64,000 nt of DNA from Escherichia phage vB_EcoM_IME537. The notes beneath the pieces are model-generated. The model did not search any database. It was not told where the DNA came from and worked only from the letters and a program-made list of their open reading frames with translations. The position numbers and the translations under genes are program-made. Each line of letters starts with the position of its first letter. Within the stretch, counting starts at the first letter, position 1. Below are positions 3,714-47,789 of the stretch, in pieces. The stretch is taken from the sequence record NC_054921.1. One strand, given 5' to 3'.

Positions 3714-3768
3714 GTAATTTCCTTCAATTCAAATGAGATTTAATTTTATAACTAATTTAATAAAGCAA

Positions 3769-4158
3769 TTAACGATTAAAATCAGCAGCAATTGTTTCCG
3801 CAACAATTTGAGCAGCAACAATTAGACGTTCATCTGCATTACCGCAATAATTATCTTCAAGGCGTTCACCGCATGAAGTCATAATAAATTTAGCACCAGC
3901 ATTTAGAGATTCTGCCGTATGTTTGCGCATCAGTTCAATCCATTTATCACTCACTTCACGATCGATAGCTTCATAATATGCATGACGAGCAGGTGCAGAT
4001 TTAATTTTGTTCTGAATAACTTCCATTGCGTTATCAGAAAGAGACAAAACCCATGCTCGACGAATTTTATTTTGGTTTTGTGGATTTGATTCAGAACGCA
4101 CGTGTTTTGGCTGAATATCTTTTACATCAACAGTATAATTCACAGTAATTTTAGTCAT
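3769..4158 (-). CDS. rpbA: RNA polymerase-binding protein RpbA
   Basis: 129-aa ORF in the T4 rpbA position. Confidence 0.8.
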
Positions 4159-4167
4159 AATACACCT

Positions 4168-4356
4168 TTAGTCATAATAATCAGTAACAGTCCAAGCATC
4201 ATTTCTGTTGGACATTATTTTCGTATATTCTGATTTAAATGCATTCTTAAGCATAGATTCAGTAACTATATGCTCTTCATTAGAAAAATTATTTCTCAGA
4301 ATATATCGTTTTATTTCAGGAATAGTTAATAGATGCTGTCCAGTTGAATATTCCAT
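4168..4356 (-). CDS. 45.2: hypothetical protein (T4 45.2 position)
   Basis: 62-aa ORF with ATG start; synteny. Confidence 0.55.
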   Translation of the reverse strand: MEYSTGQHLLTIPEIKRYILRNNFSNEEHIVTESMLKNAFKSEYTKIMSNRNDAWTVTDYYD

Positions 4357-4411
4357 GTTTTTCCTCCATAGAGATTATACTCTAATAAATTAAAGCATAA
4401 TCTCTTATAAA

Positions 4412-6094
4412 TTAAACCATTACAGTAAACCGACCAACTTTCTTCATTTGAAGATGCTGACCATATGCTTGTGGGTCATGGTCTCTATGTGAAATAACAA
4501 AAACATTAGTATTTTTTAAACTATCTAAAATAGTTGAAATAGCTTTTACACCTTCAACATCGGTTGCTGAATCAAAAACTTCATCGAGAATTAGTGTGTT
4601 TATTTTAACACCTGAAACTTTTTCAGCAATATCACGCCAAGTAAATAAAAGAGCAATATCAATTCGTGCTTTTTCACCTTGACTAAATGAAGCATAACTA
4701 AAATCTTCACGACCACGGGATTTAATTGTCTCATTAAATTCTTCATCTAATGTAAACACATAATCCGCTTCCATTATTTTAAGATAATGGTTAATCTGCT
4801 TATTAAATAATGGAATGTACTTTTTAATAATAGCACCTTTAATACCAGAATCTTTGAGCATGTCAGTCAAAATTCCTCTGTGGTATTTTTCCATTACTAA
4901 ATTAGTTTTTGTCTTAACAATTTTATCAAGTTCTTCTTGAAGCAGTGCTATTTCATCAGCATGGTCAATAAACTCAGATGATGCTTTTTCTATAGCCGCT
5001 TTAACTTTTTTAGCTTTATCTACCGTCGTGATTAAGGATTGCTTTTTATTGCGAATATCATTTGCCAACGTCTGCTGGGTTTTAATATTATCTCGGTATT
5101 CATCAACAAGAACTTTTAAATTATCACGATGTGTTGAAAGCTGTTCAAACGAATGCGTGCATTCAGAAACTTTATCTTTAATTTTAGAAACAACTTTATC
5201 ACCGGAACTTAATTGTGACAAACAGGTTGGACATAATCCACCTTCGTGATACATATTAATGACTTTATTATATGAGTCAATTTTTGATTTAATTAAAAAT
5301 GCTTCTTGACCGATTTTATTAAATGCATCAGTCGGGTCTTCATCTAAAACAATATTAACTAATCTTTCATTAGCTTCTTCTATTTCCGATTTTAGCGTTC
5401 TAGCTTCTTTTGCCAAATCATCGTACATATTCTGCAGACGAGTAAGGTTGTCACCAGACAATTTTTTCTGGCGTTCAACATTATCATTATATATTTTAAT
5501 TTGCTGGATAATACTATCTTTTTTAACATCAAGCACTTGGTTTTGTGAATTTAATTCACGTATTAGTGCTTTATTAAGCTTATCCATTTCAGCTAATGTT
5601 CCTACCTCGAGCAGGTCTTCGACGAGTTTTCTTCTTGCAGGAGTGGATAGGCCCATAAAAGGGGTATATCCAGCCGTGCCGAGTACGACGATCTGTTTGA
5701 AACTGGCGTATGACATTCCGATAAGCTGTTCAAATTCTGCTTGGAAATCTTTACTGCTGGCAGATTCATTAAGACGTGTACCGTTAACGGTGATTTCGAA
5801 AACATTTGGTTTTTGTCCTCTTTTGATATAGTACTTTTTCTCATCATATTCCATCCACAGCTCAACTAAAAGCTCTTTCTTATTTGTGCTGTTTATTAAT
5901 TGGCCTTTCTTTACATCACGAAATGGCTTGCCAAAAAGCCCAAATGTGATGGCTTCTAACATAGTAGACTTACCACCGCCATTTCGTCCAGTAATAAGAG
6001 TTTTTTGAACCTTATCTAATTGAATGTCAATAGGATTTCCACCTACTGACATTATATTTTGATACCTAACTCGGTTTAGTTTAAAATTCTTCAC
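4412..6094 (-). CDS. 46: recombination endonuclease subunit gp46 (SbcC/Rad50-like ATPase)
   Basis: 560 aa; Walker A GRNGGGKST; long coiled coil; apparent GTG start overlapping the upstream stop. Confidence 0.9.
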   Translation of the reverse strand: MKNFKLNRVRYQNIMSVGGNPIDIQLDKVQKTLITGRNGGGKSTMLEAITFGLFGKPFRDVKKGQLINSTNKKELLVELWMEYDEKKYYIKRGQKPNVFEITVNGTRLNESASSKDFQAEFEQLIGMSYASFKQIVVLGTAGYTPFMGLSTPARRKLVEDLLEVGTLAEMDKLNKALIRELNSQNQVLDVKKDSIIQQIKIYNDNVERQKKLSGDNLTRLQNMYDDLAKEARTLKSEIEEANERLVNIVLDEDPTDAFNKIGQEAFLIKSKIDSYNKVINMYHEGGLCPTCLSQLSSGDKVVSKIKDKVSECTHSFEQLSTHRDNLKVLVDEYRDNIKTQQTLANDIRNKKQSLITTVDKAKKVKAAIEKASSEFIDHADEIALLQEELDKIVKTKTNLVMEKYHRGILTDMLKDSGIKGAIIKKYIPLFNKQINHYLKIMEADYVFTLDEEFNETIKSRGREDFSYASFSQGEKARIDIALLFTWRDIAEKVSGVKINTLILDEVFDSATDVEGVKAISTILDSLKNTNVFVISHRDHDPQAYGQHLQMKKVGRFTVMV

Positions 6095-23430: not shown

Positions 23431-23485
23431 AATAATCTCAATTAAAAGGGCTTAGAACCATTATACCATCCTTGGTATAAAGCAG

Positions 23486-31620: not shown

Positions 31621-32202
31621 CTAACCGAGCTTTTTAGTTAATTCATTCCAATGTTTTCTACACAAAGAAACATAAATTTCATCACCAATACAGATTTGAT
31701 TACCTTCTTTAACGGGTGTTCCATCTTCCATTAATCGAGCTGTCATAATAGCTTTTTTACCACAATGACAAACTGCCTTTAGTTCAATAAGTTTATCTGC
31801 AATCGCCAAAAGTTCTTTAGAACCTTCAAATAATTTTCCGGCGAAATCAGTCCTTAGACCATAGGCCATAACAGGAACATTATATGTATCAACAATTCGG
31901 CTCAATTGATGCACCTGTTCAGTTTTTAAAAACTGGGCTTCATCTACAAATACGCAATGAATATCTTTTTGTGCTTCAGCCCATTTATAGAACTCGAAAA
32001 TATCCATATCATCTGTAATAATATTTGCTTCCTGCTTAATTCCAATGCGAGAAACGACTTCACAGACAGAATCGCGAGTATCAATAGCAGGCTTAAGAAC
32101 TAATACACTCATTCCGCGCTCTTTATAATTATGCGCAGCAGTCAAAAGAGAAGCAGATTTTCCAGCATTCATTGCTGCATAAGTAAAAATTAAACTCGCC
32201 AT
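31621..32202 (-). CDS. tk: thymidine kinase
   Basis: 193 aa; P-loop AAMNAGKS; C-terminal zinc-ribbon cysteines. Confidence 0.9.
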   Translation of the reverse strand: MASLIFTYAAMNAGKSASLLTAAHNYKERGMSVLVLKPAIDTRDSVCEVVSRIGIKQEANIITDDMDIFEFYKWAEAQKDIHCVFVDEAQFLKTEQVHQLSRIVDTYNVPVMAYGLRTDFAGKLFEGSKELLAIADKLIELKAVCHCGKKAIMTARLMEDGTPVKEGNQICIGDEIYVSLCRKHWNELTKKLG

Positions 32203-32397: not shown

Positions 32398-32563
32398 ATA
32401 TTAATTTCCAGGAGTTTTAAAATAATTCGCTTTTGCTTAAATATTTCCATAGTTAAATGACCAGTATCTTTTTGACCGATTCCAATGGCAAAACCTTTAT
32501 TGACAGCGAGTTCAATTAAATTATCAAGCTCACGTAACACTTCATACTGTAACTCAGAACTAT

Positions 32564-32776
32564 TCATTTCGGTTTACCTTCTTTAACGAAATCTGGATAA
32601 GGATAAAATCCCGAATAAAATCCTTCACCTTTATGATTGATGCATCCTTTATTAGAACAATAGCACCAATAATCGAAATCACAAGCCATTTCATCGTTGC
32701 ATAAAGCAAAAACAACTGGCCATTTACACTTTTCACAATGGGCATTTTTAAGAATACTAGTTTGGCTCATAACCAT
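32564..32776 (-). CDS. small cysteine-rich (zinc-binding?) protein
   Basis: 70 aa; CEKC...CNDEMAC...CYC...C. Confidence 0.4.
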   Translation of the reverse strand: MVMSQTSILKNAHCEKCKWPVVFALCNDEMACDFDYWCYCSNKGCINHKGEGFYSGFYPYPDFVKEGKPK

Positions 32777-32994
32777 GTAACCTTTAAGCAGTATTCTTCT
32801 ACATGCTGTTTACGACCTTTCTTATCAATAAAGGTATATTCAACGAATGTTCCAATGTAGTCTTTATCTACGTCATGTGGACTATTAATTGGGCATTTAG
32901 TACGGCAAATGCGTTCCCATTGACGAATAATTACTGCCTTATTCTTTGGGTCATATGGATGTGGATAATGTATATTCATAATAATGGTTCCCAA
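32767..32994 (-). CDS. hypothetical protein
   Basis: 75-aa ORF. Confidence 0.4.
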   Translation of the reverse strand: MGTIIMNIHYPHPYDPKNKAVIIRQWERICRTKCPINSPHDVDKDYIGTFVEYTFIDKKGRKQHVEEYCLKVTWL

Positions 32995-33443
32995 TCAACA
33001 ATCACAATTTCTAATTTAGAGGAATATGTATCTAAAATCCCCTCAATAATATCCCAGTTCCCTTTACCTATGCCTGCACCAATCCTAGGCATATAGATTG
33101 TAGGTTTAATCAGTTTATTTTCACCAAACTCATTTAATTCTAACATACAATTCATTAAAGCGGAATACTCAAAATTTGGCCCTGGTTGAAATTGAGTATA
33201 AAGGTTGAAGCAATACGCTTTATGAGTCCTAAAGTATTTTTCATAGACTGAGTAAGAACCAAGTTTAGTTACATCACCCCATTCAGTCTGTAATTTATCA
33301 GCTTCCAAAATTTTAGGGAAAGCTTTGGTTAATTGACCCGCTACGCCTGAACCCATAGTATGAAAACAATTGCATCCATGCGCAATATTTTTACCTTCAG
33401 CGAAAAGGGCGACAATATCGCCCTTGATATATTTTACAATCAT
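32976..33443 (-). CDS. macro-domain-like protein (ADP-ribose binding or processing)
   Basis: 155 aa; HGCNCFHTMGSGVAGQL resembles the macro-domain N-x(6)-GGGV loop. Confidence 0.5.
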   Translation of the reverse strand: MIVKYIKGDIVALFAEGKNIAHGCNCFHTMGSGVAGQLTKAFPKILEADKLQTEWGDVTKLGSYSVYEKYFRTHKAYCFNLYTQFQPGPNFEYSALMNCMLELNEFGENKLIKPTIYMPRIGAGIGKGNWDIIEGILDTYSSKLEIVIVDWEPLL

Positions 33444-33787
33444 CTAGTACTCAATCCTCGATTATAAGAATCTACCAAACGGTCAACCATTGAATGACAA
33501 GCGGCTTTATCTTTCTCCTCCGCAACTGAACATTCTAAGGTATTCCACTTTTTAGCATATCGTTTTAATAATGTATCGTTTTTGTATCTGCTTGATTTAT
33601 CTCTTTCTCCGTCTTTATATGCATATATTAATTTCTGCGCAAATTCAGCTTGGCATGCTTTATTTTTCCCACAATAATCTGCCGCAGTGCGATTTACATA
33701 CTCTCTAATTTCAGTATATGATGTATTTGCTAACGCAGAAGCAGAAAATGAAATTAATCCTATACATAAAACCAAAATTTTAGTCAT
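33440..33787 (-). CDS. vs: valyl-tRNA synthetase modifier Vs
   Basis: 115 aa with signal peptide; T4 synteny. Confidence 0.75.
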   Translation of the reverse strand: MTKILVLCIGLISFSASALANTSYTEIREYVNRTAADYCGKNKACQAEFAQKLIYAYKDGERDKSSRYKNDTLLKRYAKKWNTLECSVAEEKDKAACHSMVDRLVDSYNRGLSTR

Positions 33788-34325
33788 TTACTATTTCCAA
33801 AAGTTTATTATTTTTAAGGTAATTAGCCTTTTCTAGGACTTCAGAAGCATATTTAGAACCTGCTTTAACATTCCATCCCGAATTATAAGAGGATATTGCC
33901 TTTCTTATATCGCCCTTATGTATATTTAACCAATAAGAAAGTTCAATGTACGCCCAGGAAGCTGAATTGGACCGTTTATTCAACATTCTTTTTATTTCAG
34001 CATCGGTCATATTATAACCAAGTTCCTTAACTCTCGCTCGCATAGTAGGCAAATAATTTTGGAACATTCCATAAGCGTGATGCTTTGGTTTAGATTTTAA
34101 ATTAACTCCGGCAGAGCTTTCTTGCCATAAAATAGCAGCCATTATATGACCTAATCCACCCTTGTGGATATTTTTATGTGTTTTATATTTTCCATCCTTA
34201 GAAAATTGTTCCCCGAATTGATACGCGTAACGCATGTTATCGAGTTGGACATTACTGAAAGTATGCTCGGAGCTATGTGCCATCATTGAAATGGCCAATA
34301 GACCAGCGAGTAGTGCTTTTCTCAT
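33780..34325 (-). CDS. vs.1: secreted lytic-transglycosylase-like protein
   Basis: 181 aa; signal peptide; SLT-like motif region. Confidence 0.6.
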   Translation of the reverse strand: MRKALLAGLLAISMMAHSSEHTFSNVQLDNMRYAYQFGEQFSKDGKYKTHKNIHKGGLGHIMAAILWQESSAGVNLKSKPKHHAYGMFQNYLPTMRARVKELGYNMTDAEIKRMLNKRSNSASWAYIELSYWLNIHKGDIRKAISSYNSGWNVKAGSKYASEVLEKANYLKNNKLLEIVND

Positions 34326-34332
34326 GCTTACC

Positions 34333-34794
34333 TCATTGAGTTTTAATTACTGCTTTAGAAGCCTTTCCTGGTAAACGACGACTGTTGATAATTGCCATCC
34401 TACATTGAAGTGACGGGTCTTTGAACTTCGCGTTAGGTTTACAAACTGTAAATCCAAGCCAAAGATTTCCATCTGTGATTTCTAAACGTCCAGGACGATA
34501 TTCAACCCCATCAATAAAATCCTCGTCAATGTCAGGACGCGGAGGCATACTCAGGAATTCATTAACTTCTAAAACATGGTCTTTTATTTTGTGGAATAAT
34601 TCAAAAACATATGTCTCATCAATCTCCCGTTGAATTGCACGGTCAAGAAGATGCTGAGAATATTTTAGATGAAACGATGAGACCCCTGCTGCTTTTGATG
34701 CCTCACGAATCTCATTGTTAATTTGACGAAACTCCGACTCAAAGTGACGACGAAGCTTATTTCGACGGATAAAAACTTCTGTATTGATAGTCAT
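34333..34794 (-). CDS. regB: site-specific RNA endonuclease RegB
   Basis: 153 aa; matches remembered T4 RegB. Confidence 0.9.
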   Translation of the reverse strand: MTINTEVFIRRNKLRRHFESEFRQINNEIREASKAAGVSSFHLKYSQHLLDRAIQREIDETYVFELFHKIKDHVLEVNEFLSMPPRPDIDEDFIDGVEYRPGRLEITDGNLWLGFTVCKPNAKFKDPSLQCRMAIINSRRLPGKASKAVIKTQ

Positions 34795-34853
34795 ATTATT
34801 CTCCTCTTAACTGATAGAAAAATTATACCACAGTCAAGAGGAAAAGTAAACAG

Positions 34854-38073: not shown

Positions 38074-38529
38074 TTAAAAGAGGTTGTTCATTATTCGGTA
38101 AAGTGAAGGACCCATCACATATTGCCACTGAGTACGAGGAATAAGAGCAAAAGCGTCCATCTCTGGAATCATAACGCCATCTTTATTTTCAAAATAAGAC
38201 TCGCAATGGCAATTTCTAAACATCTCATGCTCTACTGGAATCGTATAATAAAATAACTGTAAGTCTTTATTACTAGAATATTTAAATACACCTAGGTCTT
38301 CTAGAAGGTCTGGATTATAATTGCTAAAACCAGTCTCTTCTAAACATTCTCTTCGTGCTGCATCTAGTACGCTTAAATCAGAATTTTCTACGCGGCCCTT
38401 TGGGATATCCCAGCGATGTGCCATCATTCCAGGCTTACGAGAACCAGTAACCCGTCCCATGAATAAATCTTTATCTTCGGTCATAAAGATAATACCAGCT
38501 GATAGTGTTTTCATTTTAATTTCCTGCAT
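38074..38529 (-). CDS. nudE: Nudix hydrolase NudE
   Basis: 151 aa; Nudix box GRVENSDLSVLDAARRECLEETG; an alternative ATG at 38514 has a better SD. Confidence 0.8.
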   Translation of the reverse strand: MQEIKMKTLSAGIIFMTEDKDLFMGRVTGSRKPGMMAHRWDIPKGRVENSDLSVLDAARRECLEETGFSNYNPDLLEDLGVFKYSSNKDLQLFYYTIPVEHEMFRNCHCESYFENKDGVMIPEMDAFALIPRTQWQYVMGPSLYRIMNNLF

Positions 38530-45987: not shown

Positions 45988-46245
45988 TTATTTCAAATCT
46001 TCTAATCGTTTCTTCATCTTAGAACCATTTTTAGCAATTTCTCCTGCATCGGAGCATAATGCTAAAAGTGCTTTAACTTTAGTTTGGTCTCCTTTAAAAG
46101 ATGAAGGATCGACTGCAGCAGCAAGTTCTTTAATACGAGAGAAAAGACGCTCAGCTTCAGCTAAAGCCATTCCAAGCTTTACTTCCATACCGTGAGAAGA
46201 TTCAGTGATAGTAGTTTTTGTAGCAAACTCTTTGAAAGTTTTCAT
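45988..46245 (-). CDS. internal-protein-like gene (ipI locus) with a degenerate targeting sequence
   Basis: 85 aa; N-terminus MKTFKEFATKT lacks the xEA cleavage context. Confidence 0.5.
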   Translation of the reverse strand: MKTFKEFATKTTITESSHGMEVKLGMALAEAERLFSRIKELAAAVDPSSFKGDQTKVKALLALCSDAGEIAKNGSKMKKRLEDLK

Positions 46246-46275
46246 TTTATTTTCCTAATTAATTTTGATGAGGTA

Positions 46276-46305
46276 ATAATATCACTACCTCATCAGTATG
46301 TAAAC
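46276..46305 (-). promoter_or_regulatory. sigma70-type early promoter within an inverted repeat
   Basis: GTTTACA-N17-TATTAT; flanking TGATGAGGTA / TACCTCATCA. Confidence 0.5.
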
Positions 46306-46317
46306 AACTTTGTGAAA

Positions 46318-47014
<697 letters not shown>

Positions 47015-47740: not shown

Positions 47741-47789
47741 ATGTTTCTCCTCAAATTTAGTTAAGATTATAACACATGAAACTGAAGCA

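Follow-up and report, generated by a model that had tools for sequence, protein, structure and literature searches.

By its sequence, the gene under study is phage T4 tk.4 (adfM), and our alignments reveal what is new here: its active site is not DarG-like, since a glutamine, Gln84, replaces the catalytic lysine. The macrodomain it encodes, Tk.4, probably hydrolyses thymidine-linked ADP-ribose on single-stranded phage DNA, in a reaction that would depend on Gln84 and be independent of lysine. The role of tk.4 against DarTG2 is already known. What remains of interest is the lysine-free active site and the possibly convergent origin of the two proteins that share the name AdfM.

The window (the whole stretch of 64,000 nucleotides that was analysed) is T4-type phage genome, running from DNA polymerase gene 43 through baseplate and tail genes, and its bases 32400-34400 are 100% identical to those of Escherichia phage vB_vPM_PD112 (Tequatrovirus). 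The protein is identical at 155/155 residues to T4 Tk.4 (NP_049723), whose database annotation reads "phosphatase; contains A1pp phosphatase motif" and whose gene appeared in the 1986 T4 sequence as ORF 60.5. The preliminary description, which had been made from the letters of the window, was right in recognizing a macrodomain open reading frame here and missed that it is a named T4 gene. The gene and its surroundings are as follows:

31621..32202: thymidine kinase gene, on one side of tk.4
32767-32979, minus strand: equivalent of T4 tk.3, the gene directly after tk.4 (annotations of NC_054928 and T4)
32976..32979, minus strand: ATGA in which the stop codon of tk.4 overlaps the start of the T4 tk.3 equivalent (sequence, with the annotations of NC_054928 and T4)
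32976..33443, minus strand: tk.4 (adfM) coding sequence, a stand-alone macrodomain of 155 aa with an ATG start (ORF list, which confirms exactly the frame given in the preliminary description)
33440..33443, minus strand: ATGA overlap of the vs stop codon and the tk.4 start codon (sequence; the annotated CDS ends agree)
33440..33787: vs gene, on the other side of tk.4

In T4 itself, tk.4 also lies between tk.3 and vs, with the same ATGA overlaps. Because these overlaps are found at both ends of the gene, tk.4 is placed within a tightly packed string of co-directional genes, and they suggest translational coupling across these small early genes. Two genes downstream of tk.4, at 32564-32776 (minus strand), there is a cysteine-rich ORF of 70 aa (CEKCKW...CNDEMACDFDYWCYCSNKGCINH), annotated as hypothetical, which looks like a small zinc-binding protein.

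The function of tk.4 has been approached by genetics. In the HIDEN-SEQ preprint of November 2025, a T4 transposon library was grown on a host expressing DarTG2 and tk.4 was the single significant T4 gene; deleting tk.4 cleanly made T4 sensitive to DarTG2, and the gene received the new name adfM (anti-DarT factor macrodomain; bioRxiv 10.1101/2025.11.20.689424). On E. coli K-12 without DarTG2, tk.4 is dispensable (bioRxiv 10.1101/2025.11.20.689424). The result filled an earlier gap, as T4 lacking both adfA and adfN remains DarTG2-resistant. The gene gives T4 resistance to DarTG2 and is one layer of a published stack of anti-DarT factors, alongside adfA and 30.3/adfN. The preliminary description had proposed that a phage macrodomain could reverse host ADP-ribosylation defences, and had suggested plating on hosts with DarTG. 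The proposal matches the published genetics, which concern the identical T4 protein, and the plating has been published for T4, where loss of tk.4 sensitizes the phage to DarTG2. Since the experiment on the DarTG2 host is already in print, the finding is not a new one. The preprint, which is not peer reviewed, offers genetics without enzymology and states that hydrolysis "seems likely," on account of a structural similarity to DarG of Mycobacterium tuberculosis (bioRxiv 10.1101/2025.11.20.689424).

Tk.4 has the three-layer alpha/beta macro fold with two glycine-rich loops that bind ADP-ribose. The Pfam Macro profile (PF01661) matches it at 27.7 bits against a gathering cut-off of 22 (E 2.9e-6, covering positions 2-113 of the 118 in the profile), and the AlphaFold2 model, made from an alignment of 84 homologues, has a mean pLDDT of 96.5. 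Foldseek returns the same set of proteins as does a search of PDB sequences with the family profile. In both sequence and structure, Tk.4 is nearer to TARG1, DarG, ALC1, BT1257, and Poa1p than to macrodomains of the MacroD, viral, or PARG types, and it belongs to the TARG1/ALC1-like class. The macro-domain-like fold announced in the preliminary description is therefore borne out by profile and fold searches alike; macro is the only fold they assign, and the different fold that had been named as the contrary outcome did not appear.

The elements of the active site lie at the following places in the gene:

33330..33380, minus strand: loop 1, residues 22-38 (HGCNCFHTMGSGVAGQL), with Asn25 (33369-33371) and G31-x-G33
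33192..33200, minus strand: Y82-T83-Q84, with Gln84 where TARG1 (K84) and DarG (K80) have their catalytic lysine (profile and MAFFT alignments)
33054..33089, minus strand: loop 2, residues 119-130 (PRIGAGIGKGNW), the second glycine-rich loop for the ADP-ribose phosphates (alignments)

At the catalytic position, the aligned proteins read:

Tk.4: N-L-Y-T-Q84, Gln84
TARG1: L-I-T-K84, Lys84
DarG: F-P-T-K80, Lys80
PhiKZ gp104: F-P-T-K78, Lys78
BT1257: M-I-G-Q, Gln
SCO6735: M-I-G-Q85, Gln85

Three kinds of alignment agree on this strand: the family profile against PDB sequences and two MAFFT sets, one containing DarG, TARG1, BT1257, and PhiKZ gp104 and the other SCO6735 and four distant phage homologues. 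The numbering of SCO6735 was verified on the tagged PDB chain, and Gln85 was located through the alignment of BT1257 with SCO6735. A pairwise phmmer alignment with BT1257 ran ungapped through the catalytic strand and misplaced the glutamine; its placement is resolved by the profile and MAFFT alignments. With Gln84 at the aligned catalytic position, Tk.4 does not have the lysine that is catalytic in DarG and TARG1. Gly126 stands at the position of TARG1 Asp125, and the Lys84/Asp125 dyad of human TARG1/OARD1 is thus replaced by Gln84/Gly126. Yeast Poa1p differs again, with a serine at position 84, and H22 and T29 of Tk.4 align with H23 and S30 in its loop 1.

The glutamine is strictly conserved. 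Gln84, Tyr82, and Asp49 are unchanged in 84/84 aligned homologues and in 82/82 fetched loci, 80 of which came from the genome scan. These three residues are outside the peptide patterns used in the search, so their invariance is no search artefact. In the alignment of 84 sequences, G33 is invariant, and H22 and N25 are nearly so (at least 90%); the three are unchanged in all of the 82 loci, N25 being part of the peptide pattern with which the loci were found. P119, G122, and G124 are likewise invariant among the 84 homologues; loop 2 itself served as a search pattern for the loci. Tk.4 N25 aligns with DarG N22 and with N23 of PhiKZ gp104, in which the N23A mutation reduces activity (PMC13309987).

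Gln84 and the domain composition set Tk.4 apart from DarG. The DarG proteins of Thermus aquaticus and M. tuberculosis (PDB 5m31, 5m3e, and 5m3i) have Lys80 in the motif FPTKKHW and a C-terminal domain that binds DarT, whereas Tk.4 has Gln84 in LYTQ and no second domain. Membership in the DarG family was rejected: Tk.4 scores 30.3 bits against a cut-off of 250 bits with NCBIfam NF048014, matching model positions 2-146 of 338, which are its macrodomain half. With the PADLOC model of DarG, Tk.4 obtains 36 bits and PhiKZ gp104 133 bits. The latter, like Tk.4, is a phage-encoded stand-alone macrodomain acting against DarTG2 that was independently named AdfM; it counters DarTG2 and de-ribosylates DarT2-modified DNA in vitro (Cell Rep 2026, PMC13309987). 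Its match with DarG of M. tuberculosis is at 9e-25, and it retains the lysine, K78. We considered and discarded the orthology of Tk.4 and gp104: BLASTP aligns only 23 residues of the two (E 0.005), and hence they are not orthologues. Judging from these comparisons, they are different lineages of the same macrodomain class, of which gp104 is DarG-like and lysine-bearing. The name AdfM is consequently in use for two kinds of protein, the Gln-type T4 Tk.4 and the Lys-type, DarG-like PhiKZ gp104 (PMC13309987; bioRxiv 10.1101/2025.11.20.689424).

The active site can be compared with that of SCO6735 of Streptomyces coelicolor. This protein has neither of the two catalytic residues of TARG1, yet it outpaces both DarG and TARG1 in stripping the thymidine ADP-ribose made by DarT from DNA. 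It also rescues cells exposed to DarT, and either Q85A or Q85E eliminates its activity. The mechanism proposed for it is water-mediated, and later work with synthetic substrates confirmed the activity again. Tk.4 Gln84 is the counterpart of SCO6735 Gln85 and of the glutamine of Bacteroides BT1257 (PDB 5e3b for the former, 2afc/2fg1 for the latter), with both of which Tk.4 shares about 28% identity, and by this residue Tk.4 goes with their Gln-type subclass. There are differences. SCO6735 and BT1257 are cellular proteins with the motif IGQ, whereas Tk.4 is a phage protein with YTQ. The loop after the glutamine (FQPGPNFEY) is six residues shorter in Tk.4 and free of lysine, whereas that of SCO6735 has Lys89 and Lys93; the place of SCO6735 Lys34 is taken by Ser32. 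The extended, mobile, lysine-bearing loop and Lys34 are reported to be important for the activity of SCO6735 on DNA, and their absence from Tk.4 speaks against the hydrolase reading. Apart from the shorter lysine-free loop and Ser32, the residues of Tk.4 fit the Gln-type subclass. The mechanistic interest of Tk.4 lies here: it is a protecting macrodomain without the lysine that defines DarG and TARG1, and with the invariant glutamine that it has in common with SCO6735.

These observations are consistent with the following scheme. During infection, DarT2 modifies thymidines of single-stranded phage DNA with ADP-ribose taken from NAD+ and blocks replication. Tk.4 most likely binds this ADP-ribose between loop 1 (Asn25 and G31-x-G33) and loop 2 (G122-x-G124), which together make up a cleft, and would then cut the bond between thymidine and ribose, giving free ADP-ribose and restored DNA. 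The invariance of Gln84 suggests that this may follow a lysine-independent, water-mediated route such as the one proposed for SCO6735. The sequence identity, the macro fold, and the matching of residues are established here, and the requirement for tk.4 on a DarTG2 host is established by published genetics; the hydrolase activity of Tk.4, thymidine-linked ADP-ribose on DNA as its substrate, and the part played by Gln84 are inferred.

Protection could also come about without catalysis, if Tk.4 directly binds and inhibits DarT2, or if ADP-ribosylated DNA or NAD-derived ligands are shielded or sequestered by it. SCO6735 that has lost catalysis can still bind DarT and inhibit it, which means that protection is no proof of hydrolysis; the inactive Q85A form inhibits DarT in vitro more than DarG K80A or TARG1 K84A does. 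Tk.4 itself has neither the catalytic lysine nor the aspartate, and the same glutamine is found at the position of Gln84 in the macrodomain of ALC1, which is known as a non-catalytic binder of ADP-ribose. However, N25, Q84, D49, and both glycine loops are invariant across phages and very diverse bacteria, which fits an active site better than a surface for one toxin. Furthermore, the C-terminal domain with which DarG binds DarT is missing from Tk.4, and a single-query tblastn places a DarT2 gene within 4 kb at 0 of 80 bacterial homologue loci. We therefore regard non-catalytic protection as an unlikely explanation.

Another explanation would be that Tk.4 removes ADP-ribose from proteins or RNA, acting on marks set by T4 Alt, ModA, or ModB or by other host toxins that target RNA or proteins. 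SCO6735 and TARG1 de-modify proteins too, and some of the bacterial homologues are clustered with ADP-ribosylglycohydrolases, microbial PARG, and NrtR, as described below. As a main function this appears very improbable, since T4 can do without tk.4 on E. coli K-12 that has no DarTG2, and no phenotype of this kind has been reported. Alt and Mod, moreover, modify arginine, and we do not know of any macrodomain of the TARG1/ALC1-like class that cleaves arginine-linked ADP-ribose. Such removal could be a side activity of Tk.4, though one that finds no support. The idea that small ADP-ribose derivatives (ADP-ribose-1''-phosphate, as for Poa1p, O-acetyl-ADP-ribose, or immune signals) are the main substrates and the DarTG2 phenotype is secondary rests, like the "phosphatase" annotation, on the H-x-C-N-C loop common to Poa1p and Tk.4, and is highly unlikely, given that Poa1p has a serine in place of the invariant glutamine, that the sole phenotype on record is specific to DarTG2, and that to our knowledge T4 tRNA repair by Pnkp and Rnl1 leaves no 2'-phosphate and so makes no ADP-ribose-1''-phosphate. 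Our analysis gave no support to the suggestions in the preliminary description that the protein destroys ADP-ribose-derived signals, as in Thoeris, or hydrolyses O-acetyl-ADP-ribose.

Relatives of Tk.4 are frequent among phages: tblastn found them in 2,749 of 50,697 phage records, including T-even phages, KVP40-like phages, Felix O1, Pakpunavirus, Kuttervirus, and a Rhodococcus phage. The homologue of Felix O1 (L087:1495-2280) has a C-terminal extension of about 100 aa past the macrodomain, and that of the Pakpunavirus Pseudomonas phage EM (L088:1-1980) adjoins a gene for nicotinate phosphoribosyltransferase, an enzyme of NAD salvage. The nearest "bacterial" homologues, in contigs of MAG Bacilli, MAG Culicoidibacterales, and Flagellimonas marina (L002/L004, L003/L007, and L026), had to be set aside. 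Their macro genes are surrounded by genes for Rnl1, Pnkp, a Dda-like helicase, dCMP deaminase, spanin, and tk; these contigs are T4-like phage DNA binned or assembled with bacteria, and thus give no cellular context. Genuine chromosomal homologues, with 33-43% identity, are found in Rhodobacteraceae, Desulfobacterales, Bacteroidota, and other groups. We rejected the view that these bacterial genes are orphaned DarTG antitoxins: a single-query tblastn, which has limited sensitivity, found no DarT2-like sequence within 4 kb of the 80 bacterial loci, nor any in the window.

A minority of the bacterial homologues are found among other enzymes of ADP-ribose metabolism. Two Ruegeria genomes and one from Bacteroidales have a NADAR gene (Pfam E 3e-36) whose end is just a few bases upstream of the macro gene (NADAR at L019:3463-3993 and macro gene at 4001-4459; further cases are L055 and L066), with no DarT gene close by. 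T4 has the same pair of ADP-ribose-removing activities, in the separate genes 30.3/adfN and tk.4/adfM. A locus of Pleionea sp. (L082:1696-6268) encodes in succession an ARH, NrtR (Nudix and winged helix), a small unassigned ORF, the macro protein, a microbial PARG, and another ARH, and NrtR is also present at the macro loci L040, L033, L066, and L046.

There is also a broader view, which we advance tentatively and which falls a little short of being our expectation. Tk.4-type proteins may be a class of Gln-dependent, lysine-independent erasers of thymidine-DNA ADP-ribosylation, with the motif N-x-Y-T-Q, that phages recruited independently of DarG. Tk.4 and gp104 would then be convergent, and the bacterial homologues, of which some directly follow a NADAR gene, could be toxin-independent "detox" modules against DNA ADP-ribosylation. 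Should Tk.4 prove to be an active hydrolase, a poorly understood lysine-free mechanism is at work in the most common type of phage macrodomain, and to call it a "DarG-like orphan antitoxin" is wrong in evolutionary terms.

Possible signals for the transcription of tk.4 were sought as consensus matches. The candidate element closest to the gene is the following:

34822..34850, minus strand: nearest same-strand upstream sigma-70-like promoter match, in front of regB (consensus only: TTTACT, 17 nt, TATAAT with TG)

This match is a possible source of a regB-vs.1-vs-tk.4 transcript, at a level of sigma-70-like matches in the region that equals the shuffled expectation. A dedicated tk.4 promoter was discarded as a candidate: there is no MotA box directly upstream on the coding strand, and the sigma-70-like matches are at chance. 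More broadly, the minus strand has no MotA-box middle promoter between the regB match and tk.4. The whole window has 23 sites resembling MotA-box middle promoters (TGCTTNA, 11-13 nt, TANNNT) against 4.3 expected, nearly all of them on the minus strand (e.g., 3743-3767, 4374-4397, 23460-23484, and 47766-47789). On the opposite strand, inside the 5' end of tk.4, a terminator-like hairpin with a T-run is found at 33405-33425 (plus strand), a consensus match of a kind that occurs at chance frequency in the region.

Two further genes of the window touch on ADP-ribose or on host defence. A Nudix gene at 38074-38514 (minus strand) is at the place of T4 nudE (e.1). NudE hydrolyses ADP-ribose, and could use up the product released by a macrodomain hydrolase. 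A gene annotated as "RNA ligase," at 46207-46662 (minus strand), corresponds in position to T4 57B (acb1), which encodes the anti-CBASS nuclease.
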